Shown piece after piece: positions 10,519-58,312 of a stretch of DNA of 64,000 nucleotides. The stretch is from Candidatus Geohabitans tengchongensis. Its GTDB lineage: Bacteria > Sysuimicrobiota > Sysuimicrobiia > Sysuimicrobiales > Humicultoraceae. Made by a program: the position numbers and the translations under genes. Location of the stretch: contig JAVKIH010000011.1 in NCBI GenBank assembly GCA_031459625.1, positions 21,031 through 85,030 on the forward strand, given 5' to 3'. How positions within the stretch are numbered: position 1 is the first letter of the stretch; every line of letters starts with the position of its first letter. The notes below the pieces were generated by a model. It was not told where the DNA came from. It did no database searches and saw only the letters and a program-made list of their open reading frames with translations.

Positions 10519-10630
10519 CCGCTCCCGCCTCGGGAGTGTGGTCGGCACCGCGTAGACCACAACCTCCTCGCCACGTCGGGTGGAGAGTCCGACCACCCAA
10601 CGGCGGAGCCATGCCCCTGACACCATCGCC

Positions 10631-11965
10631 ATGGCCACGCTGACCCGCGCGACCCACCGACCGATCCGCTCCTTCGACGAGCGGGTACGGGCCCGCCAGG
10701 CCACGGTGGCGGTGGTCGGACTCGGGTATGTCGGCCTGCCGCTGGCCGTGGCGTATGCCGAGGCCGGCTTCCCCGTGGTAGGCGTCGACATCGACCCCGA
10801 CAAGGTGGCCACGGTGAATGCCGGGCGCTCGCCCATCGGTGAAGTCTCCGACGCCACCATGGCTCAGGTCGTGGCCCACGGTCGCCTGCGAGCCACCGGC
10901 ACCGCTGAAGCCCTGGCCGGGGCGGACGTGATCTTCATCTGCGTGCCCACGCCCTGCACGCGCAACAAGGAGCCGGACACGACCTTCATCCGCCAGGCGG
11001 CCGAGGGAATCGCTGCGCATGCTCGTCCCGACCAGCTCGTCATCCTCCGCAGTACGAGCTACCCCGGGACGACCGAGGAGCTGGTGCGGCCGGCACTGGA
11101 GCAGCGGGGGTGGCGGGTGGGTCGCGACCTCTTCCTGGCCTTCGCCCCCGAACGAGTGGACCCGGGACGTCGCGACTACGGGATCCGCAACACGCCCGTG
11201 CTCGTGGGCGGGTGCGACCCCGAGAGCACCCGGCGGGCCAGGCTGGTGCTCAGCCAGGTGACGGACCGCGTCGTCTCGATGTCCTCGCCGGCGGCGGCCG
11301 AGATGGCCAAGCTGCTGGAGAACGTCTTCCGCAATGTGAACATCGCGCTGGTGAACCAGCTGGCCGTGCTCTGCGACCGGATGGGGCTGAACATCTGGGA
11401 GATCGTCGACGCCGCGGCCACCAAGCCCTACGGCTTCCTGGCCTTCCGCCCCGGGCCGGGCGTGGGGGGGCACTGCATTCCGGTCGACCCGTACTACCTG
11501 GCCTGGAAGGCCCGGGAGTACGACTTCCACATGGACTTCATCGAGCTGGCGGCCCGCATCAACGACGACATGCCCTATTACGTCGCCAACAAACTCATCC
11601 TCGCCCTCAATGGTGCACGCCCAGGTCGCCGGCGCCGGGTGCTGGTGCTGGGGGTGACGTTCAAGCGGGACGTCGACGACTACCGGGACTCCCCGGCGCT
11701 GAAGGTCATCGAGCTGCTCACGAAAGCGGGCGTGCAGGTGGACTACTACGACCCCTATGTGGCCGTCCTGCCGCTGAACGGGAGGACGCTGCGGCGGCGG
11801 CCACTCACCCCGCAGCTCCTGCGGGCGGTGGACTGCGTGGCCATCCTCACGGACCACTCCACCGTCGACTACGCTCGGGTCGTCCGCCACGCCCGCAGGG
11901 TCTTTGACGCCCGGAATGCCACTGCCCACGTCCGCCGGGAGCGCGACAAGATCATCACCCTCTGA
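10631..11965 (+). CDS. Nucleotide-sugar 6-dehydrogenase (UDP-GlcNAc dehydrogenase, WbpA/TviB-like)
   Basis: GLGYVGLPLA, CVPTP, PERVDPG, KLLENVFR, PGPGVGGHCIPVDP, DYRDSP; alternative GTG start at 10580. Confidence 0.92.
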   Translation: MATLTRATHRPIRSFDERVRARQATVAVVGLGYVGLPLAVAYAEAGFPVVGVDIDPDKVATVNAGRSPIGEVSDATMAQVVAHGRLRATGTAEALAGADVIFICVPTPCTRNKEPDTTFIRQAAEGIAAHARPDQLVILRSTSYPGTTEELVRPALEQRGWRVGRDLFLAFAPERVDPGRRDYGIRNTPVLVGGCDPESTRRARLVLSQVTDRVVSMSSPAAAEMAKLLENVFRNVNIALVNQLAVLCDRMGLNIWEIVDAAATKPYGFLAFRPGPGVGGHCIPVDPYYLAWKAREYDFHMDFIELAARINDDMPYYVANKLILALNGARPGRRRRVLVLGVTFKRDVDDYRDSPALKVIELLTKAGVQVDYYDPYVAVLPLNGRTLRRRPLTPQLLRAVDCVAILTDHSTVDYARVVRHARRVFDARNATAHVRRERDKIITL

Positions 11966-36934: not shown

Positions 36935-36962
36935 GCGTGCGGGGCGTCGGGGAGGGACCGGG

Positions 36963-38177
36963 ATGAGTGTGCGGCGGCCGGAGACCGCGGCCCTCCCCGA
37001 GGCGGTCCCACGCCTGCCGCTACCGCAGCCGCTCCGCGGGGTGCGGGTGCTGGAGGTGGCGGACCGGCGCGTGGCCTATGCCGGACGCCTGCTGGCCGGG
37101 CTGGGAGCCGAGGTGATCCTCATCGAACCGCCGGAGCGGCGCCGCGACGCGCCCACGCCCGCGGACCTCTACTTCCGGACCGGGAAGAAGGCGGTCACGC
37201 TGGACCTCGCCGTCGCCGCCGGGCGCCACACCCTGTTCCGCCTGGCCGCGTATGCCGACGTCCTGCTGGTGGCCGGCCCGCCGGGGGAGCGGCGGCGGCT
37301 GGGGCTGACCTTCGAGGACCTCCACCCGGCGTTTCCCCGCCTGGTGGTGGGGAGCATCGCCGACTTCGGCCTGAGCGGCCCGGACGCCGACCGCCCGGCC
37401 AACGAGCTCGTGGCCTTCGCCGAGAGCGGGCTGATGTACATCAGTGGCAGGCCGGGCGAGCCGCCGGTGGCCGCCCCGCCCCACCACGCCGCCGACCTGG
37501 CCGGCGCCTACCTGGCCTTCGGAGTGCTGGTGGCCCTGTGGGAGCGCGCGCACACGCGGCGCGGCCGGGAGGTGGAGGTGTCCGTCCAGGAGGCCCTGGC
37601 CGTCGAGGAGCACACCATCTCCACTGCCTCGGACGAGGGGCGCGACCTGGTGCGCGTGGGCAGCCAGCACATGGTGGCGGTCCCGGGGTCGGTCTTCCGG
37701 GTGAAGGACGGCTACGTCCACGCCTACGTGGCCGACACCATGCCGGGGTCGTGGGAGCGGCTGCTGGAGTGGATGGGCCACCCGCCGGAGCTGGCCGACG
37801 AGCGCTACCGCCAGGGCCTCTACCGCCGCGCCCACGTCGAGGAGATCACTCCGGTGGTGGCCCGCTTCTTCGCCCGCTTCACCCGCCAGGAGCTTTACCT
37901 GGAAGGGCAGCGCCGGCGGTTGTGCATCACCCCGGTGAACACGCCGCGCGAGTACCTGGAGGACGTCCAGACCCGCGCGCGCGGGTTCGTCGTGCAGGCG
38001 CACGTACCGGGGCACGGATGGGTCGGCGTGCCGGGCGGCCCCTTCCTGCTGAACGGGCACCGCGTGCCCTTGCCCCCGGTGCCGCGCGTGGGCGAGCACA
38101 ACCGTGAGGTCTACCTGGGCCTGGTGGGCTACGGCGAAGAGGAGCTGGCGGTCCTGACCCAGGGCGGCGTCATCTGA
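36963..38177 (+). CDS. Family III CoA-transferase, second subunit (BbsE/BbsF-type pair)
   Basis: PLRGVRVLE, GAEVILIEPP, GKKAVTLDL, ADLAG, PRVGEHN. Confidence 0.88.
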   Translation: MSVRRPETAALPEAVPRLPLPQPLRGVRVLEVADRRVAYAGRLLAGLGAEVILIEPPERRRDAPTPADLYFRTGKKAVTLDLAVAAGRHTLFRLAAYADVLLVAGPPGERRRLGLTFEDLHPAFPRLVVGSIADFGLSGPDADRPANELVAFAESGLMYISGRPGEPPVAAPPHHAADLAGAYLAFGVLVALWERAHTRRGREVEVSVQEALAVEEHTISTASDEGRDLVRVGSQHMVAVPGSVFRVKDGYVHAYVADTMPGSWERLLEWMGHPPELADERYRQGLYRRAHVEEITPVVARFFARFTRQELYLEGQRRRLCITPVNTPREYLEDVQTRARGFVVQAHVPGHGWVGVPGGPFLLNGHRVPLPPVPRVGEHNREVYLGLVGYGEEELAVLTQGGVI

Positions 38178-38235
38178 CCCGATCCAGCGCGGCGTCCGAC
38201 CCGACCCAGCGCGGCGTCCGACCCGACCCAGCGCG
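38176..38235. repeat. 22-bp tandem repeat GACCCGAYCCAGCGCGGCGTCC, about 2.7 copies
   Basis: Read directly in the intergenic gap; no spacers. Confidence 0.85.
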
Positions 38236-38282
38236 CGCACGACCGCGACGCTGCGCGACACGAACACGCAGGAGGCACAGCC

Positions 38283-39452
38283 GTGGAGTTCACCGTCCCC
38301 GAGGAGTACCAGGCGCTGCGGCGGCGTGTCCGCGCCTTCGTGGAGCGGGAGCTGCTGCCCCTCGAGCGCACCCTGCCGGAGGCGCCCGACCTCCCCGACG
38401 ACCTGCGCCGCCAGCTGCAGGAGAAGGCCAAGGCAGAAGGGCTGTGGGCGCTCGACGTGCGCCGGGAGTTCGGCGGGCAGGGACTCCCCAACCTCGGCAT
38501 GGTGATGGTGTGGGAGGAACTCGGCCGCTCCACCGTGCCGCCGCTGCGGGCCCCGTCGGTGCTCACGCCCCGCATCGGCGCGCTCTACCACTGCACCCCC
38601 GAGCAGCGCGAGCGCTTCCTCGACCCCATCGTGCGGGGGGAGAAGCGCACCGCCTTCGCGCTCACCGAACCCTGGGGCGGCTCGGACGCCGCCGGCAACA
38701 TGCGCACCCGTGCCGTGCGCGACGGGGATCACTGGGTGCTCACCGGCCGCAAGGTCTTCGTCGGTGGAGCGGACAAGGCCGACGTCGTCCAGGTCTTCGC
38801 CCTCACCGACCCGGAGAAGCGGGCGCGCGGCGGGATCACCTGCTTCCTGGTCGAGCGCGGCACCCCGGGCTTCCGCCTGGGGCGGCAGTTCCAGCTGATG
38901 GTGGCGGACAGCCCCTGGGAGCTGATCTTCGAGGAGTGCCGCGTGCCGCACGCCAACGTGCTGGGGCCGGTGGGCGAAGGCTTCCGCCTGGCGCAGCAGC
39001 ACCTGACCCGTGACCGCATCTTCCACGGGGCGAAGGCGGTGGGGATGGCGGAGCGGGCCCTGGAGCTGGCCATCGACTACGCCCGCGACCGCGTCACCTT
39101 CGGGGCGCCCATTGCGGAGCGGCAGGCCGTCCAGTGGATGTTCGCCGAGTCGGCGATGGAGATCCACGCCACACGCCTCATGACCTACCACGCCGCCTGG
39201 AAGCTCGACCAGGGCCTGGACGTCCGCCAGGAGGCCTCCATCGTCAAGGCCTTCGGGACGGAGATGCTGGGCCGCGTCACCGACCGGGCCCTGCAGGTCT
39301 TCGGGGCCATCGGGCTCTCCAAGGACCTGCCCATCGAGCGCATGTTCCGTGACGCCCGCAGCCGGCGCATTGGGGAGGGCACCTCGGAGATCCAGCGCAT
39401 GGTCATCGCCCGGACGCTCTTGCGCGATCCGCGCCGGGTGCGGCTGGTGTGA
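38283..39452 (+). CDS. Acyl-CoA dehydrogenase
   Basis: FALTEPWGGSD, G.KVF, R.TFG.PI, QVFGAIG, ERMFRDAR..RIGEGTSEIQR. Confidence 0.93.
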   Translation: MEFTVPEEYQALRRRVRAFVERELLPLERTLPEAPDLPDDLRRQLQEKAKAEGLWALDVRREFGGQGLPNLGMVMVWEELGRSTVPPLRAPSVLTPRIGALYHCTPEQRERFLDPIVRGEKRTAFALTEPWGGSDAAGNMRTRAVRDGDHWVLTGRKVFVGGADKADVVQVFALTDPEKRARGGITCFLVERGTPGFRLGRQFQLMVADSPWELIFEECRVPHANVLGPVGEGFRLAQQHLTRDRIFHGAKAVGMAERALELAIDYARDRVTFGAPIAERQAVQWMFAESAMEIHATRLMTYHAAWKLDQGLDVRQEASIVKAFGTEMLGRVTDRALQVFGAIGLSKDLPIERMFRDARSRRIGEGTSEIQRMVIARTLLRDPRRVRLV

Positions 39453-39510
39453 CCGGAAAGCCCCATCCCCCCTGCGGGATGCACCCGACACCGTGAGGAG
39501 CGTGAGTCCC

Positions 39511-40497
39511 ATGACCCTGATCCGCCTGACCCTCCTGGCCGCCGTGCTGGTCCTCCTGGCTGGCCTCCTCGGAGGCTCCGCTCTCGCGAAGCAGTCGCGG
39601 CTGCCCGTGGGCTTCTCGGGCGTGCGGCAGCTCACCTACGCCGCCACCCTCATCGCCCTGGAGCGGATGCGCGACCGGGGCTACGAGGCCCCGCCCGTCT
39701 TCTTCCCCCGCCCCGAGCTGGCGCTGCAGGCCTTGCTGCGCGGCGAGGTGGACCTGGTGCGGGCCGAGCCCACCACCCCGGCCAACGCGGTCGCCCGCGG
39801 GGCGCGGGTGGCCATGGTGGCCGCTCCCGGGCTGAACCAGTGGGTGCTGGTGACGCCCCGGACCATCACCGCCCCCCGCCAGCTCGACCGCAAGCGCATC
39901 GCCGTGCACAGCCTTTCGTCCATGTCCAACACCGTGGTGCAGTTTGCCGTCCGCCGGCACCGCATCGCCGCCCCCCAGATCCTGGTCATCCCGGGCTCCC
40001 CGGCGCGGGCGCAGGCCCTGCTGCGGGGCGAGGTGGACGCCACGAGCCTCTTCCTCACCGACGCCATCCGCCTCGACCTGACCGCCCCGGGCCGCTTCCA
40101 CGTCCTGCTCGACTTCAAGGACCTGCCGGTGCTGGACTCGGTGCTGGTGGCCCGCCGCGAGTGGCTGGCCGCCCGGCCGCAGGAGATCCGGGACGTCCTG
40201 CGGGTGCTGCTGGACACCCACCGGCGCATCGCCGCCGGGCCGGAGTGGGCGGTGGTGCGGACGCTGCAGCTCTTCCCCGACGAGGACCGCGCGTTTGCCG
40301 AGGCGACCGTGCGCGCCTTCGTCGCCCGCGGCATCTGGGACGTGAACGGGGGGATCCCTGGATACGACGTCGTGCGGGAGATGATCGCCTTCCTGAAGAG
40401 CATCGAGGCGCTGCCGCCGGGTGCCCCTGACGACCCCGAGGCGTACGCCGACCTGAGCCCGCTCCAGGATGTCCTCCGCGTCTTGGGGCGTCGGTGA
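39511..40497 (+). CDS. ABC substrate-binding protein (NMT1/THI5/SsuA-like)
   Basis: Signal peptide, QALLRGEVD twice, KRIAV; adjacent permeases and ATPase. Confidence 0.82.
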   Translation: MTLIRLTLLAAVLVLLAGLLGGSALAKQSRLPVGFSGVRQLTYAATLIALERMRDRGYEAPPVFFPRPELALQALLRGEVDLVRAEPTTPANAVARGARVAMVAAPGLNQWVLVTPRTITAPRQLDRKRIAVHSLSSMSNTVVQFAVRRHRIAAPQILVIPGSPARAQALLRGEVDATSLFLTDAIRLDLTAPGRFHVLLDFKDLPVLDSVLVARREWLAARPQEIRDVLRVLLDTHRRIAAGPEWAVVRTLQLFPDEDRAFAEATVRAFVARGIWDVNGGIPGYDVVREMIAFLKSIEALPPGAPDDPEAYADLSPLQDVLRVLGRR

Positions 40498-40536
40498 GGA
40501 CGTCGGGCGAGACTGAGCGGCCGTCGTGCGAGTGGA

Positions 40537-41361
40537 GTGCACGCTGAGGACATGAGCGTGTTCGTGGCTTCACGGGAGTGGGCGGCGCGGATGCGGATGC
40601 GCCTGCCGGCCGGGATACGCCCGGACCGCTACCGCCTGGCCCGGTGGGGCTCGCTGCTGCTCTGCCTGGTCGGGTGGGAGGCGCTGGGACGGCGCGCCGC
40701 CGGGACGCTGACCCTCCCGCCGGCCTCGGCGGTGCTGCAGGCCCTGGCCCGGCAACTGACGGACGCGCGGTTCTGGGCGGCGTGCGCCACGACGCTGGAG
40801 GCGCTGGCGGTGGGGCTGGTCCTGCTGGTCGCCCTCGGCATCCCGCTGGGCCTCGCCTGCGGCCGCTACCCGCTGGCGGGGCGGATCGCCGAGCCGTACC
40901 TGGGCTTCCTGCTGGCGGTGCCGGCTTCGCCCATGGTTCCGGTCTTCGTCATCGCCTTCGGCATCGGGCTGGCCGCGCGCGTGGCCACCATCGTCGCCTT
41001 CGCCCTGCCGCTGCTCATCCTGAACACCGCCGCCGGGGTGCGGCTGGCGCCGGTCCGGCTGGTGGAGATGGCCCGGTCCTTCGGCGCCGGGGAGGGGATG
41101 GTCTTCCGGCGGGTGATTCTGCCGGCGGCGATGCCGGCCATCGGCGCCGGGCTGCGGCTGGCCTCCGCCCGGGCGGTGGTGGGGATGGTCGTCTCGGAGC
41201 TGATCATCATCGCGGTGGGGCTGGGGCGGCTCATCAGCACCTACAGCGCCACCTTCGACAACGCCAACCTCTTCGCCGTGGTCCTGGCCGTCCTGGGCAT
41301 CGGGCTGGGCGTGGCGCGGCTGATGACGTGGGTGGAACGGAGGCTGGCCCCGTGGAGCTGA
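40537..41361 (+). CDS. ABC permease (SsuC/TauC/NitT-type)
   Basis: TM helices, EAA-like EMARSFGA..FRRVILPAA, VVSEL..GLG. Confidence 0.9.
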   Translation: MHAEDMSVFVASREWAARMRMRLPAGIRPDRYRLARWGSLLLCLVGWEALGRRAAGTLTLPPASAVLQALARQLTDARFWAACATTLEALAVGLVLLVALGIPLGLACGRYPLAGRIAEPYLGFLLAVPASPMVPVFVIAFGIGLAARVATIVAFALPLLILNTAAGVRLAPVRLVEMARSFGAGEGMVFRRVILPAAMPAIGAGLRLASARAVVGMVVSELIIIAVGLGRLISTYSATFDNANLFAVVLAVLGIGLGVARLMTWVERRLAPWS

Positions 41362-42131
41362 TCGTCCCCGCCATCGAGGTGCGAGAGGTGGTGAAGGCCT
41401 TCCGCGGCCCGGAGGGCGAGCCGCTGCCGGTGCTGGAGCGCCTGAGCTTCGTCGTCCCGCCGCGGCAGTTCGTCGCCGTCATCGGCCCGAGCGGCTGCGG
41501 GAAGACGACGCTGCTGCGCGTGCTGGACGGGCTGACCCCGGCCGACGGCGGCGAGGTGCGGGTCTTCGGCCGCCGCGTCACCGGTCCGGGCCCGGATCGG
41601 GCGGTGGTCTTCCAGGACTTCGCCCTGCTGCCCTGGGCCACCGTGCTGGAGAACGTCGCCTTCCCGCTGGAGATCCGGCGCATCCCCTCGCCGGAGCGCG
41701 AGCGCCGCGCGCGCGCCGCCATCGCGCTGGTGGGGCTGGACGGTTTCGAGGGCTACTACCCCCAGGCGCTGTCGGGCGGGATGCAGCAGCGGGTGGGACT
41801 GGCCCGGGCCCTGGTGGTGGACCCGCAGGTGCTCCTGCTGGACGAGCCCTTCGGGGCGCTGGACGCGCAGACCCGGATGCTGCTGCAAGACGAGCTGCTG
41901 GCCCTGTGGCAGCGGCGCCCGACCACCGTCGTGCTCGTCACCCATGACATGGCCGAGGCGGTCTACCTGGCCGACCGGGTGCTGGTGATGAGTCCGCGCC
42001 CGGGGCGGATCATCGAGGAGGTGCCGATTCCCCTGCCGCGGCCGCGGGACCAGAGCGTGCGCCGTTCGGCGCGCTTCGCCGAGCTCGTGGAGGAGGTGTG
42101 GGCGTGCCTGCGGGGCTTCGTGCGCCTGTGA
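41352..42131 (+). CDS. ABC ATP-binding protein (SsuB/TauB/NitT-type)
   Basis: GPSGCGKTT, VFQ, LSGGMQQR, LLDEPFGALDAQTR, VTHD. Confidence 0.94.
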   Translation: MELIVPAIEVREVVKAFRGPEGEPLPVLERLSFVVPPRQFVAVIGPSGCGKTTLLRVLDGLTPADGGEVRVFGRRVTGPGPDRAVVFQDFALLPWATVLENVAFPLEIRRIPSPERERRARAAIALVGLDGFEGYYPQALSGGMQQRVGLARALVVDPQVLLLDEPFGALDAQTRMLLQDELLALWQRRPTTVVLVTHDMAEAVYLADRVLVMSPRPGRIIEEVPIPLPRPRDQSVRRSARFAELVEEVWACLRGFVRL

Positions 42132-42898
42132 GGCGCCCCTGGCCGGACCGGCAGCGTCGGGCGGCCGAACGCACCCCCTGGGTCCTGACGCTGGTCCCGC
42201 TCGCCGCGGGCTGGGAGGTGGTGGGCCGCTCGGGGCGCTTCCCCTTCGTCCCACCGCTCTCCCGGGTGGCGGACGCGGCCGTGCTGCTGGCCGCGCGCGG
42301 GGAGCTGTGGCGGCACGGCCTGCGCACCCTGGCCGCGGTGCTGGCGGGGTTCGCCCTGGCCGCCCTGGTGGGGACGGTGCTGGGCGTCCTCATGGGGCGC
42401 TCCCGCTGGGTGGACGCCGTGGCGGGCCTGTACGTCGACCTCTTCCAGGTCACCCCCGCCGCCGCCAAGGTGCCGGTGCTCATCCTCCTCTTCGGCCTGG
42501 GGCCGGAGAGCATCCTGGCCACGGTGGTGCTCTTCAGCGTCTTCGTGGTAACGGTGAACGTCCGCGCCGGCGTGCGGGCCGTGCCGCCGGGGCTGGTGGA
42601 GATGGCGCGTGCCTTCGGCGCCGGGGAGGCGGTGCTGCTGCGGCGGGTCGTCCTCCCCGCTGCGCTGCCGCTCGTCCTGACCGGGTTGCGCGCGGGGATC
42701 GGCCGGGCCGTGAACGGCGCGGTCCTCGGCGAGATGCTCATCTCCATCGTGGGGATCGGCGGGCTGCTCATGTACTACGGGGGCGCCTTCCGCATGGACG
42801 TGCTCTGTGCGTTGATCCTGGGGATCGCCCTGCTGGCCACCGCCCTCATGGGGGCGGTGCGGGCGGTGGAGCGGCGGGTCCTGCGCTGGACCCTCTGA
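42098..42898 (+). CDS. ABC permease (SsuC/TauC-type), second subunit
   Basis: EMARAFGA..LRRVVLPAA, GEM..GIG; start uncertain (42098, 42104 or 42128). Confidence 0.88.
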   Translation: MGVPAGLRAPVRRPWPDRQRRAAERTPWVLTLVPLAAGWEVVGRSGRFPFVPPLSRVADAAVLLAARGELWRHGLRTLAAVLAGFALAALVGTVLGVLMGRSRWVDAVAGLYVDLFQVTPAAAKVPVLILLFGLGPESILATVVLFSVFVVTVNVRAGVRAVPPGLVEMARAFGAGEAVLLRRVVLPAALPLVLTGLRAGIGRAVNGAVLGEMLISIVGIGGLLMYYGGAFRMDVLCALILGIALLATALMGAVRAVERRVLRWTL

Positions 42899-42926
42899 GC
42901 GGCGCCCCGTCGAGGAGGCAGACCTG

Positions 42927-43823
42927 ATGGAGGGGCGGTACGAGACCATCCTGGTGAGGGACGACGACGGGATCGTGACGGTCACCTTCAACCGGCCCGA
43001 GAAGAAGAACGCCATGAACCCCACGCTGCACCGGGAGATGCACGCGGCGCTCACGGCCCTGGCCGCGGACGACCGGGTGCGCGTGCTGGTCATCACCGGA
43101 GCGGGGGACGCCTTCAGCGCCGGAATGGACCTGAAGGAGTACTTCTACGACCTCAAGGACCGGCCCCGGGAGGTGGACCGCAACCGCGTCATCTCCCAGG
43201 AGTGGCGCGACCGCAAGCTGCGGCTCTTCCCCGCGCCCACCATCGCCATGGTGAACGGGTACTGCTTCGGCGGGGCGCTGCCGGTGGTGGCGGCCTGCGA
43301 CCTGGCCCTGGCCGCCGAGGAGGCGCTCTTCGGCCTCTCCGAGGTGAACTTCAAGGGCATCCCGGCCGGGCCGGTGGCCATGGCCATGGGGCGCGTCCTC
43401 CACCCGCGCGACGCCCTGTGGCACATGCTGCTGGGCGAGCCGTTCGACGGCCGCCGGGCGGCGGAGCTGAAGCTGGTGAACCGGGCGGTGCCGCGGGCGC
43501 AGCTGGCCGCGGAGACCTACGCCGTGGCCGCCGCCCTGCGGGCGAAAGACCCCCACGCGCTGCGCCTGACCAAGGAGCTCTTCCGCCACAGCCTGGGGAT
43601 GGACCCCGACGCCGCGCTGGCCTTCGCCAACGCCAAGGTGCGGGAGCTGACCTACCTGCAGCAGGGGGGCTGGATCGAGGAAGGCATCGGGGCGTTCCTG
43701 GCGGGGCGGTCGCGGCCGGGGTTGGGGGCGGAGGGCGTCGCGTCCGATCCGGACGCAATACCCTCCTCCACGACCGACCGCCCTGGTCGCCACGACGTGC
43801 CGCCGCCTCCAGGGGGGCGCTGA
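42927..43823 (+). CDS. Crotonase-family enzyme, hydroxycinnamoyl(feruloyl)-CoA hydratase/lyase-like
   Basis: NRPEKKNAMNPTL, AGMDLKEYF, PTIAMVNGYCFGG, FGLSEVN, C-terminal F...RPGL; resembles HCHL/Ech. Confidence 0.8.
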   Translation: MEGRYETILVRDDDGIVTVTFNRPEKKNAMNPTLHREMHAALTALAADDRVRVLVITGAGDAFSAGMDLKEYFYDLKDRPREVDRNRVISQEWRDRKLRLFPAPTIAMVNGYCFGGALPVVAACDLALAAEEALFGLSEVNFKGIPAGPVAMAMGRVLHPRDALWHMLLGEPFDGRRAAELKLVNRAVPRAQLAAETYAVAAALRAKDPHALRLTKELFRHSLGMDPDAALAFANAKVRELTYLQQGGWIEEGIGAFLAGRSRPGLGAEGVASDPDAIPSSTTDRPGRHDVPPPPGGR

Positions 43824-43850: not shown

Positions 43851-45425
43851 GTGACCACCGCAGCTCCCGTACCCTCTGCGCTGTCCTCGGGCTCCGTGCC
43901 GATCGAAGAGGAGCCCTACGTGCACCTGCGCCTGGAGGACGGTGGGGTGACGGTGCGGGGGAACCCGGCGGTGACGTTGGGTCACCGGGTTCCCCGGGGA
44001 GCGGGGGAGAAGCCGGACGGCGTCTTCGCAGCCTGGTCCTGGGACGGCCGTGTCCTGCGCGTGGAGAACGACCGCTACGGGTGCTATCCGCTGTACTATG
44101 CCGCCGCTCCGGGCGAGCTCCGCCTCTCTCCCTCCATCCCGCGGCTTCTGCGCGCCGGGGTGTCGCGGGAAGTGGACGAGACGGCCCTCGGCGTCTTCCT
44201 GCGGCTGGGCTACTTTCTGGACGATGAAACACCGTTCCGGGCCATCCGGGCCGTGCCGCCCGACGCGACGTTCATCTGGCGCGACGGGCAGCTCGAGGTC
44301 AGCGGGCGCTACGCCGGCAGCCCGGAGCAGACCATCACCCGGAGGGCCGCCATCGACGCCTACGTCGAGCTGTTCCGGCAGGCGATCCGCCGCCGTCCCC
44401 CGACGGAGGAGGCGGTGGTGACCCTGAGCGGCGGGCGGGATTCCCGGCACATCCTCCTGGAACTGTGCGCACAGGGCACCCCACCCCGGCGGTGCGTCAC
44501 CACCTACCGGTCCTTTCCGTCCATGCTGGGCCGTCACGCGCCCAGCGAGGACGTGGAGCTCGCCCGGGCCCTGGCCGAAGCCGTCAGGGTGGAGCACGTG
44601 CTGGTCCCGCAGTCCCCTTCGGCGCTGCGCGCCGAGCGCCGCAAGAACCTGCTGACCGGCTTCTGCACAGACGAGCATGGGTGGTACGTCGCGGTGGCCG
44701 ACTACCTGAAGGGCCACGCCACGGCCGTGTACGACGGGATCGCCGGCGACGGGCTCTCCGAGGACCCGCTGCTCGACGCGGAGGGGCTGCGCCTCTACCG
44801 GGAGGGGCGGCTGGGCGAGCTGGCAGACCGCTGGCTCGACGAGCGGGAGGAGGCTCTCCTCCGCACGCTCATCCCGCCGATGTGGGCGGGGGCGGCCGAC
44901 CGCGACCGGGTCCACGCGCGCCTGGTGGCGGAGCTGCGCGCCTTCGCGGGCGCGCCCAATCCGGTGGGGACCTTCCTCTTCTGGAGCCTCACCCGCCGCG
45001 AGACCGCCCTGGCCCCCTACGGCCTGCTGCGCGGGGTCGACCTCGTCTACAGTCCCTACCTGGACCACGATCTCTACGACTTCCTGACGTCGCTGCCTGG
45101 GGAGATGCTGCTGGGCCACCGGTTCCACACGGAGACGATCGCGCGGGGGCATCCCCGCTACGCCGCCTTTCCCTACCCCTCGAAGGATGCGGCGGCCCTG
45201 CGGCGGCCGGTGCGTCATCGGTCCTTCACCCTGGAGGTGCTCCGCGAGGTGCTCGCCCGGCCCACGGCGTTCCGGGCGACGCTGGTCCCCACACTCCTCG
45301 CCGCGCTGGCCCGGGGAGCCCCCCGCTGGGTGTTGCCGGTCGTCGTCTACCTCATGCAGCTCGAGGAGGTCTGCCGCGACCTGCCGGCGTGGTGGCGGGC
45401 CGGTGAGCCCGGCGAGGGGGCCTGA
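43851..45425 (+). CDS. Asparagine-synthetase-like ATP-dependent amide ligase without the N-terminal Cys
   Basis: DRYGCYPLYY, TPFRAI, PP-loop LSGGRDSR, GIAGD, SPYLDHD. Confidence 0.78.
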   Translation: MTTAAPVPSALSSGSVPIEEEPYVHLRLEDGGVTVRGNPAVTLGHRVPRGAGEKPDGVFAAWSWDGRVLRVENDRYGCYPLYYAAAPGELRLSPSIPRLLRAGVSREVDETALGVFLRLGYFLDDETPFRAIRAVPPDATFIWRDGQLEVSGRYAGSPEQTITRRAAIDAYVELFRQAIRRRPPTEEAVVTLSGGRDSRHILLELCAQGTPPRRCVTTYRSFPSMLGRHAPSEDVELARALAEAVRVEHVLVPQSPSALRAERRKNLLTGFCTDEHGWYVAVADYLKGHATAVYDGIAGDGLSEDPLLDAEGLRLYREGRLGELADRWLDEREEALLRTLIPPMWAGAADRDRVHARLVAELRAFAGAPNPVGTFLFWSLTRRETALAPYGLLRGVDLVYSPYLDHDLYDFLTSLPGEMLLGHRFHTETIARGHPRYAAFPYPSKDAAALRRPVRHRSFTLEVLREVLARPTAFRATLVPTLLAALARGAPRWVLPVVVYLMQLEEVCRDLPAWWRAGEPGEGA

Positions 45426-45430
45426 CGTCC

Positions 45431-46270
45431 GTGTACCACGTTACCCTCGACGGCTTCCGCGGGTACCGTTCGCGCTTCGACGACATTCGGCTCGTCCAGG
45501 AAGTCCTGGAGGGACTGCCCGTGATCCTCGAGTTGCAGCCGACGATGCCGGCGTTCCTGCTCCCCTACTACAACGGCGTGGTCCCCGAGGACTGCGGCAT
45601 CAGCGCGTTCGTGTTCCTGGAAGGCGGCCACTGCACCATCCACACCTTCTCCTTCCGTGAGACGTATTTTGCTGACGTCGTCTCGCCGCGGGCGTTCGAT
45701 GCCGAGCGGCTGTATCGGCACTTGCAGGCCGCCTTCCCGTGCGCCATCACCGCTGTCAGTGCCCTGTCCCGTGACGGGACTCCGGTCGAGGCGCCCGAGG
45801 CGGACCCGGAGGCCGACTTCGGCCCGCACTACTTCCTGGACCTCATGGACTACGCCGGCCCGGCCCACCTGGACGAGGTGTTCGACCTGTTCGACCGGCT
45901 GCCGGGGGTGATCGGGATGACACCGATCATGCGTCCGTACGTCCTGCGGGGCCGGACGGCGGACGGCCGGCAGCACGTTAGCGCGATGACCATGATCGCG
46001 GAGAGTCACCTCGCCCTGCACGTCTTCCCCGGGGACCGTCGGGCGCACTTCGACCTGTTCTCGTGTCGCTTCTTCGACCACACCGCGGTCATCCCGCGGA
46101 TCCGGCGGGAGTTGCCCGGGACGATCCGCGGGGAAGCGCTCATCGCCCGAGGGCGGCGCTATCGCTACCTGCGGATGGACGGGCCGGGACACACGGCCCA
46201 GGCCCGGGCGTGGGTCAGGGTCTTGCCGGCCTCGGCGGCCGCGGAGGAGGTCGGCGCATCCTCCGGGTGA
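45431..46270 (+). CDS. Tandem two-domain S-adenosylmethionine decarboxylase-fold (pyruvoyl) protein
   Basis: Domain 1 GISAFVFLEGGHCTIHTF; domain 2 GPH..D, SAMTMIAESHLALHVFP..DLFSC. Confidence 0.82.
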   Translation: MYHVTLDGFRGYRSRFDDIRLVQEVLEGLPVILELQPTMPAFLLPYYNGVVPEDCGISAFVFLEGGHCTIHTFSFRETYFADVVSPRAFDAERLYRHLQAAFPCAITAVSALSRDGTPVEAPEADPEADFGPHYFLDLMDYAGPAHLDEVFDLFDRLPGVIGMTPIMRPYVLRGRTADGRQHVSAMTMIAESHLALHVFPGDRRAHFDLFSCRFFDHTAVIPRIRRELPGTIRGEALIARGRRYRYLRMDGPGHTAQARAWVRVLPASAAAEEVGASSG

Positions 46271-46274
46271 TCCG

Positions 46275-47414
46275 ATGACCGCCAGTCCGTCCATGAGGCT
46301 GCGACCATCCGTGGCCTTGGTCCACCACGGGCAGTTCTCCGGGTGCACGGCATCGCTGCGCGGCGCCCTGGCCGCGCGGATGTCGGTGGTCGACCTGGAC
46401 CTGCTCCGCCTGGCGCGGCGCCCCGCGTTGCTGCGCGCCCGGGTGCGCGCGACGTGGGAAGCGCAGCGAACGGGCAGGGGGACGCCCTGGGTGAAGACGG
46501 GGGCCTGGTCCCGGGCCTGTCAGCAGTGGGCGGAGGAGCACGGGTTCCTTGCGCCACACCGTCCCGTCCTGTTCCTGCAGACCCTCTCAGCCTTCGTGCT
46601 GGACAGGGCGGGGCCACGGTACGCCGTCTACACCGATCGGGTCAGCGCCGAGGGGGCGACCCGGGACGGGGTCTACGCGTCGCGGTTCACACCGGCGTGG
46701 CGGGCCCGGGAGCGGGTGTTCCTCCAGCGGGCGGAACGGGTCTTCGTGATGGGTCCGGCAACACAAGACGTGCTGGAACGGGAGTACGGCGTCCCGCGGT
46801 GGCGCGTCAGTGTGGTCGGCGGCGGGCCCAACGTCCCGCTCACCGGGCCCGTCCAAGCCGACCGGTGCCGTGCCCTGCTCTTCGTGGGGCGGGAGTGGGA
46901 GATGAAGGGCGGCCCGCTGGTGTTGCGCGCCTTCCAGCAGCTGCGCCGTCGGTTCCCCGACCTGGAACTCCTCATCGCGGGCTGCAGGCCGTTCGTCCGG
47001 CCCCCGGCGGGAGTGCGGATGTTGGGCTGGGTGCCTCGCGAGGCCATGGACGACGTCTACTCCGCGGCCCAGATCCTGGTGGTCCCCGGTTACAAGGAAG
47101 CATTTGGACACGCCTTCGTCGAGGGGCTCATCAAGGGCCTGCCCTGTGTGGCCTCGTGTGGAGGGAACCAGGCCGACCTGATCGCCGATGCCGGGCGCTG
47201 CGTCCCCCCCGGAGACGTGGGGGCGTTGCGCGTGGCGCTGGCCGAGGTCATCGCCCGCTACCCGGAGTACCGGCGTCGGGCCGTGCGACGGGGCCGGGAG
47301 CTGCGGGAACGCTTCGCCTGGGACCGCATTGCCGGCCGCATCCTGGGGGAGTTCCTGGAGGCGGCCCCGGTGTCCGGGGAGGACCCGGCGCGCCCGACAC
47401 CAGCGCGGTCCTGA
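46275..47414 (+). CDS. Glycosyltransferase family 4
   Basis: LFVGREWEMKGG, EAFGHAFVE; paralogue of 21184-22302. Confidence 0.87.
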   Translation: MTASPSMRLRPSVALVHHGQFSGCTASLRGALAARMSVVDLDLLRLARRPALLRARVRATWEAQRTGRGTPWVKTGAWSRACQQWAEEHGFLAPHRPVLFLQTLSAFVLDRAGPRYAVYTDRVSAEGATRDGVYASRFTPAWRARERVFLQRAERVFVMGPATQDVLEREYGVPRWRVSVVGGGPNVPLTGPVQADRCRALLFVGREWEMKGGPLVLRAFQQLRRRFPDLELLIAGCRPFVRPPAGVRMLGWVPREAMDDVYSAAQILVVPGYKEAFGHAFVEGLIKGLPCVASCGGNQADLIADAGRCVPPGDVGALRVALAEVIARYPEYRRRAVRRGRELRERFAWDRIAGRILGEFLEAAPVSGEDPARPTPARS

Positions 47415-47430
47415 CGATGGGAGGCCGATC

Positions 47431-48339
47431 ATGGACGTGGGGACCACGCGTCTCGTGAACCCCGAGCTGCGCGCCCGCCTCGATGGCGGGGCGCGCCCGC
47501 CGTGTCGCATCCGGCGCCCGGGCCATCTGGCCCTCGAGGTGGCGGACCTGGGCCGGGCGGTGGACTTCTACACCCGGATCCTCCGCCTGGTGCGTGTCGA
47601 AGAGGGGGAGGGCGTCGTCTACCTCCGGTCGCAGTTCGAGCACCACTGCCTGGAGCTGCATGGCACCGGCCGGTCGGGACTCCATCACGCCGGATGGGAG
47701 ACGGACAGCGACCAGGAGACCGAGGCTCTGCACGATGCCCTGGCCCGGCGGGGCGTCCCGGTGCGCGACGCCCCGCCCGAGCCGGGCCGGCGGGGCCGGG
47801 CCTTCCAGTTCCAGGACCCCATGGGGTTCTGGCACGAGGTCTACCGGGCCATGGACCGCCTCCCGGTGCTGGTGAGCAACGGTCCCTTCCCCGTCCTGCG
47901 CCAGGCCCACTTCGCCTTCAACTCCCCGGACGTGGATCGCGACCTGGAGTTCTTCCGGGCGGTAGGGTTTCGGGTCTCGGACTGGAGTCCGGGCCGGCAG
48001 GCCTCGCTCCGCTGCCTCCCGGAGCACCACAACATCTCGCTCTTTGCCCACGGGCGCGCACGCTTCCACCACCAGGGCTTTGACATCGGCTCCTGGGAGC
48101 ACCTGAAGGGGATCCTCGACTGGATCGCCCACCAGGAGTACCCGGTCGAGGTGGGCCCCGTGCGTCACGCTCTGGGCAATAACATCTCGGTCTACCTGCT
48201 CGACCCCGACCGTTTCCGCATCGAGCTGTTCTGCGAGATGGAGCAGATCCTCGACGACGAGGATCACGAGAACCGCCGCCAGCCGCCGCTCTTCGACCTC
48301 TGGCGCCGCCAGCCCGTCCCGGCGGACTTCAGGGAGTAG
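47431..48339 (+). CDS. VOC-family extradiol ring-cleavage dioxygenase (catechol 2,3-dioxygenase-like)
   Basis: Two-domain VOC; AHFAF, EHHN, FHHQGF, GPVRH, YLLDPD..IE give the 2-His-1-Glu set plus catalytic His and Tyr. Confidence 0.8.
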   Translation: MDVGTTRLVNPELRARLDGGARPPCRIRRPGHLALEVADLGRAVDFYTRILRLVRVEEGEGVVYLRSQFEHHCLELHGTGRSGLHHAGWETDSDQETEALHDALARRGVPVRDAPPEPGRRGRAFQFQDPMGFWHEVYRAMDRLPVLVSNGPFPVLRQAHFAFNSPDVDRDLEFFRAVGFRVSDWSPGRQASLRCLPEHHNISLFAHGRARFHHQGFDIGSWEHLKGILDWIAHQEYPVEVGPVRHALGNNISVYLLDPDRFRIELFCEMEQILDDEDHENRRQPPLFDLWRRQPVPADFRE

Positions 48340-50331: not shown

Positions 50332-51138
50332 GTGACCTTCTCCTTCGGCAGCAACTGGCTGGACTACCTGAAGAGCGTTTCCGAGGACGCAGTCGCGCGC
50401 GCCCGGGCCGACATCGAGCATTGGGTCGGCAGCGCCACGGTCCGGGACGCCTCAATCCTCGACGTGGGGTCCGGCTCCGGCATCCACTCGCTGGCGTTTC
50501 TCCAGCTGGGCGCCCGGCGCGTATGCTCGTTCGACGTCGATCCCCGCTGCGTGGATGCCACGCGACAGCTCTGGGAGCGGGCGGGTCGCCCGGCGCACTG
50601 GGAGGTGCTCCAGGGCTCGATCCTCGATCCGGCCTTCACCGGCACCCTCGGGAGCTTTGATCTGGTCTACGCCTGGGGGGTGCTGCACCACACCGGGGCT
50701 CTGTGGGAGGCCCTTGCCCGGACCTGCACCCTGGTCCGATCCGGCGGCCTGTTGTGGGTGGCGATCTACACGAAAGGCCCGAGCTACGCCGACGACCTGG
50801 CCTTGAAGCGACGGTACAATGCCGCGTCCCCTTTGGGCAAGCGCCTCCTGATCTACAAGAAGATCGGCAAGGTGATGCTCAAGCGGCTCCGGAAGTTCCA
50901 GAACCCGCTGGCATGGAACCAGCCCAAGGAGCGCGGCATGGATGTCTACCACGACATCGTCGACTGGCTGGGCGGGCTGCCCTACGAGGTGGCCAGCCCG
51001 GACGAGGTGGTGCGGTTCACCCGTCAGCGGGGATTCGTCCTGGAGCGTATCAGGGTGGAGGGGGAGCGGGCGAACAGCATCTATATACTCCGCGCACCGG
51101 ACGCTGTGCGCACACCGGGGGAGAAACCGCAGCCGTGA
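50332..51138 (+). CDS. Class I SAM-dependent methyltransferase
   Basis: FSFGSNW, LDVGSGSG, FDLVYAWGVLHHTG, DWLGGLPYE; alternative ATG at 50311. Confidence 0.88.
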   Translation: MTFSFGSNWLDYLKSVSEDAVARARADIEHWVGSATVRDASILDVGSGSGIHSLAFLQLGARRVCSFDVDPRCVDATRQLWERAGRPAHWEVLQGSILDPAFTGTLGSFDLVYAWGVLHHTGALWEALARTCTLVRSGGLLWVAIYTKGPSYADDLALKRRYNAASPLGKRLLIYKKIGKVMLKRLRKFQNPLAWNQPKERGMDVYHDIVDWLGGLPYEVASPDEVVRFTRQRGFVLERIRVEGERANSIYILRAPDAVRTPGEKPQP

Positions 51139-56416: not shown

Positions 56417-58312
56417 ATGTGCGGCATCGCGGGCCTCTACGCCAGGCGAGGGGCGGTCGACCCCCAGGTGGTGCGGACCATGACGGCGGTACAGACGCAC
56501 CGCGGGCCGCTGGAGGAGGGGTACCTCCTCACGCCCCGTGTCGGCCTGGGCATGCGCCGCCTCTCCATCATCGACGTGGCCGGCGGCCAGCAGCCCGTCT
56601 ACAACGAGGACGGCTCGATCGCCGTCGTCTTCAACGGGGAGATCTTCAACTACCGGGAGCTGCGCGCCGAGCTCCTCGAGCGCGGCCACCGCCTCACCAC
56701 GGTCTCCGACACGGAGGTCATCGTCCACCTGTACGAGGAGCGGGGGATCGACTGCCTGCACGCCTTCAACGGGATGTTCGCCTTCGCCCTGTGGGACGGC
56801 CGGCGCGAGCGCCTGTTCCTGGCACGCGACCGCCTGGGCGTCAAGCCCCTCTACTACTGGGACGACGCCCGGGGCCTGGCCTTCGCATCCGAGCTGAAGG
56901 CGCTCCTGCTCTGTGACTTCGTGGAGCGCCGTCCGGACCCCTATGCCCTCCTCGACTACCTGGCGCTGATGTACGTTCGCGCGCCACGCACGCCGTTCCA
57001 GGACGTACACAAGCTCGCCCCCGGCCACTACCTGGTGGCGGACCGCATGGGGACCCGGGTGGACGCGTACTGGCGCCTGGCCGACTACTACACGCCCGCA
57101 CGAGTTTCAGTACCGGAGGCCGTCGAGCACGTCCGGGAGCTGCTGCGTGACGCTGTGCGCCTCCGGCTGCGCAGCGACGTCCCGGTGGGCGCCTTCCTGA
57201 GCGGCGGGATCGACTCCAGCGCGATCGTAGCCCTGGCGGCACAGGAATCGGCCACTCCCCTGCGGACCTTCACCGTGGACTTCGGTCCGGACAGCTTCGA
57301 CGAGGTCCGCTACGCCCGGCTGGTGGCCGACCGCTATGCCACCGCGCACAACGAGATGCGGGCGACCGTGAACGATGCCCTGCAGGAGCTGCCTCGGCTG
57401 GTCTGGCACATGGATGAGCCGCACGGCGACTCGGCCGTCGTCTCGACCTATCTGGTCTCGCGGTTCGCTGCCAGCCAGCTCCGCGTGGTCCTGTCCGGTT
57501 CCGGGGGCGACGAGGTCTTCGGCGGCTACCGGCGGTACTTCGACGGCGGCGCTGTGGACCACCTCTACCGACGGCTGCCGCAGGGGCTGCAGGTGGCCGG
57601 CGCGCGCTGGGCCAGGCGCGTCAACGCGGAGCTGGGCGGCCGCCTGGCCTGGAACGCCATGCCCGTAGAGCAGCGCTACCTGCGCACCCTCTCACTTTTC
57701 CACGCCCAGGAGCGCCGCCGGCTCCTCGGCGAGGCGGTGCACGACACCCTCGACCTGCGGGAAGTGTTCGCCGCCGTCCCGCACGCCGACCCGGTCAATC
57801 GCCTGATGTACGTGGACGCGGTGACCTACCTGCCGGACGACATTCTCCACGTGACCGACCGGATGAGCATGGCGGTCTCGCTGGAGGCGCGTACGCCCTT
57901 TCTCGACTACCGTCTGGTAGAATTTGTCGCCGGACTTCCTGGACGCTGGAAGGTGAACCCCTGGCGGCGGACCTGGAAGATTTTGCTGAAGCGAGCGGTG
58001 GGGCCCTGGCTGCCCCCGGCGATCCTGGCGCGCCCGAAGTGGGGGTTTGGCGCTCCGTTGCGCGCCTGGATGAGCCATGGGCTGCTGGACGTGATGGCCC
58101 AGGTCTACCGGAAGAGCGCCGCCGTGGACGCGGGGCTGGTGCAGGTCGAGGGCGTGCAGACCCTCCTGCAGGCGGCCCGCACCGGGCCGATGGCGGTGCA
58201 CGTGGCCCAGCAGCTCTGGTCGCTGCTGGTGCTCGAGCTCTGGTCCCGGCTCTTCCTGTGCGGACCGGCCGCTCAGGCTCCCGCCTTTACGCTGCGCGAC
58301 CTGGCGGCGTGA
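56417..58312 (+). CDS. asnB: Asparagine synthase (glutamine-hydrolysing) family amidotransferase
   Basis: MCGIAG, RRLSIID, FNGEIFN, LSGGIDSS, GGDEVFGGY, DRMSMAVSLEAR.PFLD. Confidence 0.93.
   Translation: MCGIAGLYARRGAVDPQVVRTMTAVQTHRGPLEEGYLLTPRVGLGMRRLSIIDVAGGQQPVYNEDGSIAVVFNGEIFNYRELRAELLERGHRLTTVSDTEVIVHLYEERGIDCLHAFNGMFAFALWDGRRERLFLARDRLGVKPLYYWDDARGLAFASELKALLLCDFVERRPDPYALLDYLALMYVRAPRTPFQDVHKLAPGHYLVADRMGTRVDAYWRLADYYTPARVSVPEAVEHVRELLRDAVRLRLRSDVPVGAFLSGGIDSSAIVALAAQESATPLRTFTVDFGPDSFDEVRYARLVADRYATAHNEMRATVNDALQELPRLVWHMDEPHGDSAVVSTYLVSRFAASQLRVVLSGSGGDEVFGGYRRYFDGGAVDHLYRRLPQGLQVAGARWARRVNAELGGRLAWNAMPVEQRYLRTLSLFHAQERRRLLGEAVHDTLDLREVFAAVPHADPVNRLMYVDAVTYLPDDILHVTDRMSMAVSLEARTPFLDYRLVEFVAGLPGRWKVNPWRRTWKILLKRAVGPWLPPAILARPKWGFGAPLRAWMSHGLLDVMAQVYRKSAAVDAGLVQVEGVQTLLQAARTGPMAVHVAQQLWSLLVLELWSRLFLCGPAAQAPAFTLRDLAA

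Follow-up and report, generated by a model that had tools for sequence, protein, structure and literature searches.

We analysed a window of 64,000 nucleotides (nt) from Candidatus Geohabitans tengchongensis (contig JAVKIH010000011.1, positions 21,031 to 85,030 of the forward strand), in which a ligase gene of the asparagine synthetase B (AsnB) fold is followed by a gene of the S-adenosylmethionine decarboxylase (AdoMetDC) fold. We refer to these as gene A ("AsnBL") and gene B ("SpeDD"). A preliminary description of this DNA had proposed that the two genes form a coupled cassette, in which the decarboxylase makes an amine and the ligase attaches it as an amide. Our main result is negative, in that the distribution of the two genes does not bear out the cassette idea. 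The features of the pair are as follows, with protein lengths in amino acids (aa).

43851..45425, + strand: gene A, 524 aa, GTG start, with GGGAGGG just before it
44427..44444, + strand: PP-loop ATP pyrophosphatase motif of gene A, S193-G-G-R-D-S198 (from the translation)
45426..45430, + strand: spacer of 5 nt (cgtcc) from the stop codon of A (TGA, 45423-45425) to the GTG start of B
45431..46270, + strand: gene B, 279 aa, GTG start; two AdoMetDC class-1b folds in one chain
45623..45628, + strand: N-half equivalent of the processing position in gene B, Gly65-Gly66, with no Cys equivalent (from the translation)
46001..46066, + strand: C-half catalytic stretch of gene B, with the predicted self-cleavage (pyruvoyl) site E191-S192, H197 and C212

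The distance of five nucleotides between the two genes agrees with the preliminary description. Co-occurrence of the pair across genomes was the test that the same description had named for its proposal, and the proposal did not survive it. As gene B loci we took the best 80 of 168 confirmed genomic hits, and as gene A loci the best 80 of 324 confirmed metagenomic hits, 79 of which are distinct. Neither A nor any AsnB was found within 8 kb of gene B at any of the 80 genomic B loci when these were searched for A and for canonical AsnB (tblastn, E≤1e-10); the loci extend beyond 1.6 kb upstream in 74 cases, downstream in 71 and on both sides in 66. Among the 79 metagenomic A loci, any B signal was detected at a single one (L105), as a decayed remnant in a close relative. 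Gene B was found in none of 40 genomes of the same family or order, and a full-length A ortholog was found in one of them (G001, 45% identity), with no B nearby. An initiating sugar transferase gene and an epimerase gene follow A in that genome; a FemAB-like gene is close by, and the surroundings contain no decarboxylase gene. The intact pair is present in a 97%-identical population, as proteins P0001 and P0121 on a 6811-nt contig of run X5. Intact copies come from runs X1 to X5, which are labelled hot springs metagenome and belong to two studies, and the B-less copy comes from run X6, which is labelled soil metagenome. These results suggest that the adjacency of A and B is limited to a narrow lineage, and since the genes are neighbours only there, A and B probably do not make up an obligate two-enzyme cassette.

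B also appears to have been lost in relatives in which A is intact, a second result that goes against a coupled cassette. In L105, gene A is 89% identical to that of the window, and the two loci are syntenic over an ECH-family gene, A, a family 4 glycosyltransferase (GT4) gene, a dioxygenase gene, two family 2 glycosyltransferase (GT2) genes and a GFO-epimerase gene, with proteins 78-94% identical. Between A and the GT4 gene, B is reduced to an in-frame remnant of 131 aa, lacking 92 and 56 codons. The two deletions, of 276 nt and 168 nt, have microhomology of 3 and 12 nt at their junctions (window 45551-46060 versus L105 9521-9916) and take out the N-half core and the AESH site of B, while A and the rest of the locus are intact. 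A third deletion, of 842 nt, has a direct repeat at its edges:

45382..45388, + strand: direct repeat TGCCGGC, copy 1, at the 3′ end of A; left edge of the deletion
46224..46230, + strand: direct repeat TGCCGGC, copy 2, in the 3′ tail of B; right edge of the deletion

Contig record 26 of run X6 joins position 45381 to position 46224, skipping the 842 nt, with the seven letters of the repeat common to both edges. In agreement with this joint, protein P0122 (88% to A) ends in ...CRDLPASAAAEEVGASSG, which is the end of A followed by the tail of B, and A is kept whole in this 525-aa A-B-tail fusion form. None of the three deletions shifts the reading frame, which in each case runs on to one shared stop codon located 4 nt ahead of the GT4 start. 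By our arithmetic, the chance that the frame is kept in all three, if random, is about 1 in 27. The in-frame deletions suggest selection for translation running into the GT4 gene, that is, translational coupling. A tree built from 13 proteins of the A family leaves the branching among the window pair, P0122 and P0123 as an open three-way fork, and the B-less form could be ancestral, representing the state before insertion; deletion appears the more likely event because of the 7-nt direct repeats at the flanks. Whichever order of events holds, B decayed in L105 while A stayed whole. A further candidate, a 260-nt skip inside B in run X1 (from 45971 to 46232), was not used, as its shorter side is just 25 letters long.

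We then considered each gene by itself. Gene A carries the PP-loop motif that the preliminary description had reported (residues 193-198), and its match to the Pfam model Asn_synthase scores 25.8 bits, above the cut-off of 21. Among 19 family sequences, S193, G195, D197, S198, R199 and H200 are invariant, and the N domain contains no invariant Cys. The N-terminus of A reads MTTAAPV, without Cys2, as had been noted earlier, and the lack extends further than had been noted, to the first ~115 residues of the AsnB glutaminase domain (with the Cys nucleophile and the glutamine site), which have no counterpart in A. Residues 54-329 of A align to residues 116-388 of the window's own AsnB with a probability of 97.9 (hhalign, profile of 19 members), and A retains the PP-loop domain together with the rear half of the N-terminal one. 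The match to GATase_7 scores 17 bits (cut-off 25). All NCBIfam matches of A are far below their cut-offs, including TIGR01536 (45.5 bits versus 267.1, below the AsnB equivalog threshold), the WbpS-type model TIGR03108 (34.5 versus 816.9) and the lasso and macrolactam cyclase models (34.9 and 24.8 versus 525 and 300). The AlphaFold2 model of A has a predicted local distance difference test (pLDDT) score of 82.8, and its best fold match is TsnB9 (PDB 7ylz, E = 3.6e-14, template modelling (TM) score 0.60, Foldseek), followed by beta-lactam synthetase, carbapenam synthetase and the asparagine synthetases AsnB and ASNS (E from 1e-10 to 4e-14). By its sequence and its structural model, gene A is an adenylating PP-loop enzyme of the AsnB superfamily in which the N domain is vestigial and a glutaminase site is missing. 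Since the glutaminase half is missing, A cannot draw ammonia from glutamine, and its nucleophile must be supplied either from solution, as ammonia, an amine or an amino acid, or by the substrate.

The family of gene A comprises 732 proteins at E≤1e-3 among 8000 candidates scored, with 40-49% identity to A outside its own clade and at most 52% for partial matches. The hydroxyamidotransferase TsnB9, beta-lactam synthetase and carbapenam synthetase (PDB 7ylz, 1mbz and 1q19), which are its best structural matches, have the AsnB fold and an adenylating activity, and they do not use glutamine-derived ammonia as nitrogen nucleophile in the usual way. Their identity to A is 13-17% (TM 0.45-0.63), and they belong to natural-product contexts, whereas A has a shorter N domain and a context of glycan biosynthesis. 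Like A, the enzymes WbpS, WbqG and PGN_1234 (TIGR03108, eps_aminotran_1) are AsnB-superfamily PP-loop enzymes found in polysaccharide loci, but they are full-length glutamine amidotransferases with a Cys nucleophile. They convert the carboxylate of a sugar to an amide (PMC7468200; this and the other papers cited by PMC number are used for the parts of their text that were consulted), so the earlier statement that WbpS-type enzymes amidate uronic acids is sound. Judged from these comparisons, the A family is a widespread, uncharacterised and apparently glutaminase-less AsnB branch found in polysaccharide loci, and gene A would mark an amide-forming step in many such loci that is unable to use glutamine.

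The neighbours of A in other genomes were collected as open reading frames (ORFs) within 5 kb and grouped into BLASTP clusters; 54 of the 79 loci reach more than 1.5 kb upstream. The 24 downstream ORFs used for a domain scan were chosen by eye, and the scan is a sample and not an exhaustive annotation. A Wzx-type flippase gene lies immediately upstream of A at 18 of the 79 loci. GT2 and GT4 glycosyltransferases, FemAB-like acyl/aminoacyl transferases, GFO/MocA oxidoreductases, initiating transferases and sulfotransferases are also found near A, as is phosphoenolpyruvate mutase (7 loci). A homologue of the sugar dehydrogenase was found within 8 kb of A at 2 of the 79 loci, many of which are short. 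A cluster of phosphatidylserine decarboxylase (PSD)-type genes is represented at 7 of the 79 loci, with three members confirmed by Pfam and the others assigned by cluster membership. In six of these loci, which form one clade (A 82-90% alike), the PSD-type gene is directly downstream of A, and in L162 (A 55-58% alike) it lies 2.3 kb downstream. The PSD-type neighbour contains a hydrophobic stretch at its N-terminus, and its cleavage motif is GST, as in lipid-type PSDs. We also observed a recurrent soil module consisting of two genes for large proteins, a Wzx flippase gene, A, a PSD-type decarboxylase gene, two RimK/LysX-like ATP-grasp genes, a methyltransferase gene and a second AsnB-like gene (585-592 aa), which was seen in L111 (4514-10706) and also in L115, L120, L122, L125, L170 and L162.

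Gene B matches the Pfam model AdoMet_dc (PF02675) with 66.6 bits in two stretches (cut-off 25), which upholds its earlier identification as a decarboxylase-fold gene. When the halves are scored alone, both exceed the cut-off (32.1 and 38.2 bits), and since each half matches the model separately, B appears to be a fused tandem of the fold, a point absent from the preliminary description. The match to TIGR03330 is 39.5 bits, below the cut-off of 75.65. In the AlphaFold2 model of B (pLDDT 85.7), the same order of strands and helices occurs twice, and the top Foldseek matches are the Thermotoga maritima AdoMetDC structures 1tmi, 1vr7 and 1tlu (TM 0.80 on the target). S192, H197 and C212 in the C half align to S63, H68 and C83 of the T. 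maritima enzyme. The two halves differ consistently throughout the family. The Gly-Gly of the N half is found in 76 of the 79 genomic and 110 of the 120 database homologues (one more database homologue has Glu-Gly), the Glu-Ser of the C half in all 79 genomic and 116 of the 120 database homologues, and the C-half Cys in 78 of the 79 and 115 of the 120, respectively; the remaining homologues in these counts did not match the search patterns. E191-S192, H197 and C212 are invariant in the family alignment A1. B has 408 homologues at E≤1e-3, and the family is 50-62% identical across candidate phyla, Myxococcota, Bacillota and others, with more than 60 invariant columns spanning both halves. The N half is predicted from these residues to be catalytically dead. 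We infer that B processes itself to a pyruvoyl enzyme and that each chain, which resembles a class-1b dimer within one polypeptide, has a single active site.

It is worth noting that B is not a single-domain AdoMetDC subunit, as it is a tandem of 279 aa, and the canonical SpeD and SpeE of the genome are encoded elsewhere (contigs C12 and C14). Class 1b AdoMetDC/SpeD proteins (T. maritima 1tlu, 1tmi and 1vr7) have the fold of each half of B, and their Glu-Ser, His and Cys are kept in its C half; however, they are single domains of ~120-140 aa that form dimers, whereas a single chain of B holds both domains, of which one has a dead site. Two SpeD-like domains are also found in the bacterial SpeD1-SpeD2 fusions and in eukaryotic class 2 AdoMetDC, and in V. 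vadensis and in eukaryotes only one of the two is active (Li et al. 2023, PMC10407285). In the SpeD1-SpeD2 proteins, the N domain is the active AdoMetDC and the C domain is an ornithine decarboxylase or is degraded, and the gene lies upstream of speE (PMC10407285). Compared with these fusions as that paper describes them, B has the reversed polarity, with a dead N half and a predicted active C half, and no speE is adjacent. B is thus, as judged against that description, a new variant of the AdoMetDC fold, namely a single-chain pseudo-dimer whose active half is C-terminal, and its domain arrangement would be reversed, as in a mirror, relative to the eukaryotic enzyme and to the bacterial fusions that have been discussed as possible ancestors of that enzyme. 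A second SpeD homologue beside a bona fide SpeD is also the situation of SpeDA, which clusters with the deoxyhypusine-synthase homologue speY (PMC13625781, PMC10407285). The B family resembles SpeDA in adjoining a deoxyhypusine-synthase/speY homologue at 17 of 80 loci, although the window locus has no speY, and it differs in that SpeDA is, by our interpretation of the description in the paper, the single class 1b form. No description of the gene A family or the gene B family was found in the openly available literature that was searched.

Among the 80 B loci, no neighbour of B is common to several phyla. The deoxyhypusine-synthase homologue lies directly downstream of B at the 17 loci, all of which belong to the Rokuibacteriota/Methylomirabilota group. 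A search for longer proteins found one record, P0243 (522 aa), in which a B-type protein is fused to the distal part of a deoxyhypusine-synthase domain; the fusion may be real, or it may be an artefact of gene calling or assembly. According to the literature, homologues of the SpeY type act on agmatine, and their genes are commonly clustered with those of arginine decarboxylases derived from SpeD (PMC13625781, PMC10407285). At six loci from metagenome-assembled genomes of Bacillota (L044, L046, L056, L059, L063 and L072), a CE4 polysaccharide-deacetylase-family gene was observed at most ~250 nt after B.

We further investigated the polyamine genes of 12 B-bearing genomes, which we selected to span the lineages. 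Nine of the 12 encode a canonical single-domain SpeD that scores at least 127 bits, 11 have a spermidine-synthase-family match, and 3 have a deoxyhypusine-synthase homologue. Of the known decarboxylases, OKR_DC_1 was found in 6 of the 12 genomes, PvlArgDC in 1, and SpeA over its cut-off in 1, which is the same genome that has PvlArgDC; at least one of the three was found in 7 genomes and none in 5. The genome of the window itself (2.76 Mb, 94% complete) has a group of PvlArgDC, SpeE and agmatinase genes on contig C14 (30518-32713) and a canonical SpeD on contig C12 (201781-202101), and it is predicted from these genes to have a complete route from arginine to spermidine that does not include gene B. 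No deoxyhypusine-synthase match was found in this genome at its 94% completeness. B is therefore an extra SpeD homologue in the window's genome, and this is the criterion by which Li et al. (2023) searched for neofunctionalised enzymes (PMC10407285).

The window has a G+C content of 68-75%, and the + strand carries nearly all of its genes. A Pfam and NCBIfam scan of the ORFs placed a large polysaccharide locus at 6.7-35 kb, and glycan genes resume at 43.85-58.3 kb with A, B, a GT4 gene, an extradiol-dioxygenase-like gene, two GT2 genes, two GFO/MocA-epimerase fusions and a canonical AsnB. The other features of the window are as follows.

6.7-35 kb: export and regulation genes (Wza-like exporter, Wzz-like protein, NusG-like factor)
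6.7-35 kb: sugar genes (nucleotide-sugar 6-dehydrogenase, many GT4, deacetylase, formyltransferase-like, GNAT, ATP-grasp)
6.7-35 kb: further genes (initiating transferase, DegT aminotransferase, 4,6-dehydratase)
10012-10518: NusG-like gene with a KOW motif, inside the polysaccharide locus and directly before the sugar dehydrogenase gene
10580..11965, + strand: nucleotide-sugar 6-dehydrogenase ORF (TIGR03026, 414.6 bits), nearest to UDP-ManNAc dehydrogenases
35705-43823: two family-III CoA-transferases, acyl-CoA dehydrogenase, NMT1-type ABC transporter and a p-hydroxycinnamoyl-CoA hydratase/lyase-like ECH gene
46275..47414, + strand: GT4 glycosyltransferase (ATG), starting 4 nt after the stop codon of gene B
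56417..58312, + strand: canonical glutamine-dependent AsnB, starting MCGIAG, with strong GATase_7 and Asn_synthase matches

Several statements of the preliminary description about the surroundings of the pair were confirmed in this way, namely a sugar dehydrogenase at 10631, a canonical AsnB at 56417 and the lack of a spermidine synthase in the window. The scan of 48 window ORFs gave no match to the Spermine_synth domain, and the matches of the genome are on other contigs. The dehydrogenase lies 32 kb upstream in a glycan locus of the same strand and is a possible source of uronic acid. The canonical AsnB scores 549 bits against TIGR03108 (cut-off 816.9) and 479.9 bits against TIGR01536 (cut-off 267.1), and is nearest to the WbpS-type model eps_aminotran_1 (TIGR03108).

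These observations could best be explained, in a reading that we hold with about even confidence, by two separate accessory enzymes: A would be a glycan amide synthetase taking its nucleophile from solution, and B a pyruvoyl decarboxylase of the polyamine type whose substrate, at best guess, is arginine and whose adjacency to A is lineage-specific and unstable. Using ATP at the PP-loop, A would adenylate the carboxylate of a sugar or glycan intermediate, and a nitrogen nucleophile would attack the adenylate, giving the amide, AMP and PPi. The B proenzyme would cut itself between Glu191 and Ser192, with Ser192 becoming the pyruvoyl cofactor and His197 and Cys212 assisting, and the dead N half would stand in for the second subunit of a class-1b dimer, leaving one active site per chain. 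B would decarboxylate an alpha-amino acid with a free amine and would not be the housekeeping AdoMetDC; the best guess is that it converts L-arginine to agmatine for polyamine metabolism, and B is probably the sign of a polyamine or amino-acid metabolic step that has so far gone unrecognised. The clade has three lineages, and for two of them at least the common ancestor would already have had B next to A; microhomology deletions would now be removing B in relatives. Four points weigh against this reading. With OKR_DC_1 in 6 of the 12 B-bearing genomes and both SpeA and PvlArgDC in 1, B is not simply the sole arginine or ornithine decarboxylase of its hosts. As the window's genome already has a full arginine-to-spermidine route, B might be spare for some other use. 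The distances of 5 nt from A to B and 4 nt from B to the GT4 gene would fit co-translation in one operon. Finally, the presence of a PSD-type pyruvoyl decarboxylase downstream of A in two lineages hints that A may work with a decarboxylase.

The same points can be read as coupling of a strain-variable kind, in which B makes an amine (agmatine or another decarboxylated amino acid) that A joins to a uronic-acid carboxylate of the polymer, and strains without B make an undecorated or differently amidated polymer. Such coupling would account for the tight spacing of A and B in one same-strand glycan operon, for an A that lacks a glutaminase and needs an outside nucleophile, for an extra B in a genome whose polyamine pathway is complete elsewhere, and for a nucleotide-sugar 6-dehydrogenase in the locus, and the three in-frame deletions would suit a variable decoration gene within an operon. 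There is also a precedent in Cj1436 and Cj1438C of Campylobacter jejuni HS:2, although the families of these enzymes presumably differ from those of A and B. Cj1436 decarboxylates serine phosphate and Cj1438C amidates glucuronic acid using ATP (PMC12409886). As far as described there, they follow the logic of the preliminary description, with a decarboxylase making an amine and an ATP-dependent ligase attaching it to glucuronic acid, but they are a fixed part of a capsule locus, unlike the A-B pair. We nevertheless consider strain-variable coupling rather unlikely, given that the co-occurrence counts are 0 of 80 and 1 of 79, that A is intact where B is destroyed, and that elsewhere the B family stands beside polyamine-type or unrelated genes and not beside glycan genes. 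The dehydrogenase homologue near A in only 2 of 79 loci also speaks against it. The PSD-like genes that adjoin A in two other lineages favour it by their position and count against it by their products, which are membrane-anchored and resemble lipid head-group enzymes. A broader version of the idea, that the glutaminase-less AsnB clade consists of glycan amine- or amino-acid-ligases whose nucleophile supplier was recruited at least twice from unrelated pyruvoyl decarboxylase folds (the fused AdoMetDC type here and the PSD type in soil lineages), seems quite doubtful to us; if it were true, N-substituted uronamides, such as agmatine- or polyamine-type amides, would be a strain-variable decoration of polymers.

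Other explanations concern each gene separately. Gene A might form an amide within one molecule, as a cyclase like beta-lactam synthetase, carbapenam synthetase or the lasso-peptide cyclases, or it might act on a peptide or lipid and not on a sugar. The closest folds of the A model are TsnB9, beta-lactam synthetase and carbapenam synthetase, the A family is devoid of a glutaminase as those enzymes functionally are, and NCBIfam models of lasso and macrolactam cyclases match A weakly; these scores are nevertheless far under their cut-offs, the scan of window ORFs detected neither a lasso B-protein nor an RRE domain, and the neighbours of A in other genomes are flippases, glycosyltransferases and initiating transferases. 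The gap of 27 nt between the ECH gene and A moreover leaves no room for a precursor peptide gene upstream of A, and we consider a cyclase role very unlikely. It is equally improbable that B has no role of its own, being either another genuine AdoMet decarboxylase or a relic that is regulatory or has no catalytic function. B has a clear match to the Pfam family, and it keeps the Pro after the catalytic His (HVFPG), at a position that we mapped to the Pro conserved in true AdoMetDCs as described in PMC10407285. However, that Pro is replaced in several family members (alignment A1), the TIGR03330 score is under its cut-off, and a canonical SpeD is present in the window's genome and in nine of the 12 other B genomes. 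The 50-62% identity across phyla, with the 60-odd invariant residues in both halves, points instead to a specific conserved activity of B.

Several minor observations were made in the window. The G+C content at third codon positions is 0.90-0.91 for genes A and B. A 5434-nt contig of run X4, which is filed as a metatranscriptome, spans a 3651-nt stretch of the window; we claim no transcription from it, since an equally long contig occurs in the DNA run X1 and such libraries can contain DNA. The NusG-like gene may be a locus-specific antiterminator of the RfaH or LoaP kind, an analogy that we take as an assumption. The block at 35705-43823 looks catabolic; it shares the strand of the glycan locus and lies between its two halves. 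The extradiol dioxygenase-like protein (~47431-48339) has two glyoxalase domains and an HpaD-like match of 133 bits, below the cut-off; its gene sits among glycosyltransferase genes and is 94% conserved in the relative L105. Finally, the two fusions of a GFO/IDH/MocA oxidoreductase with an NAD-dependent epimerase/dehydratase (50703-53324 and 53309-55540) are tandem paralogues that are 57% alike (tblastn).

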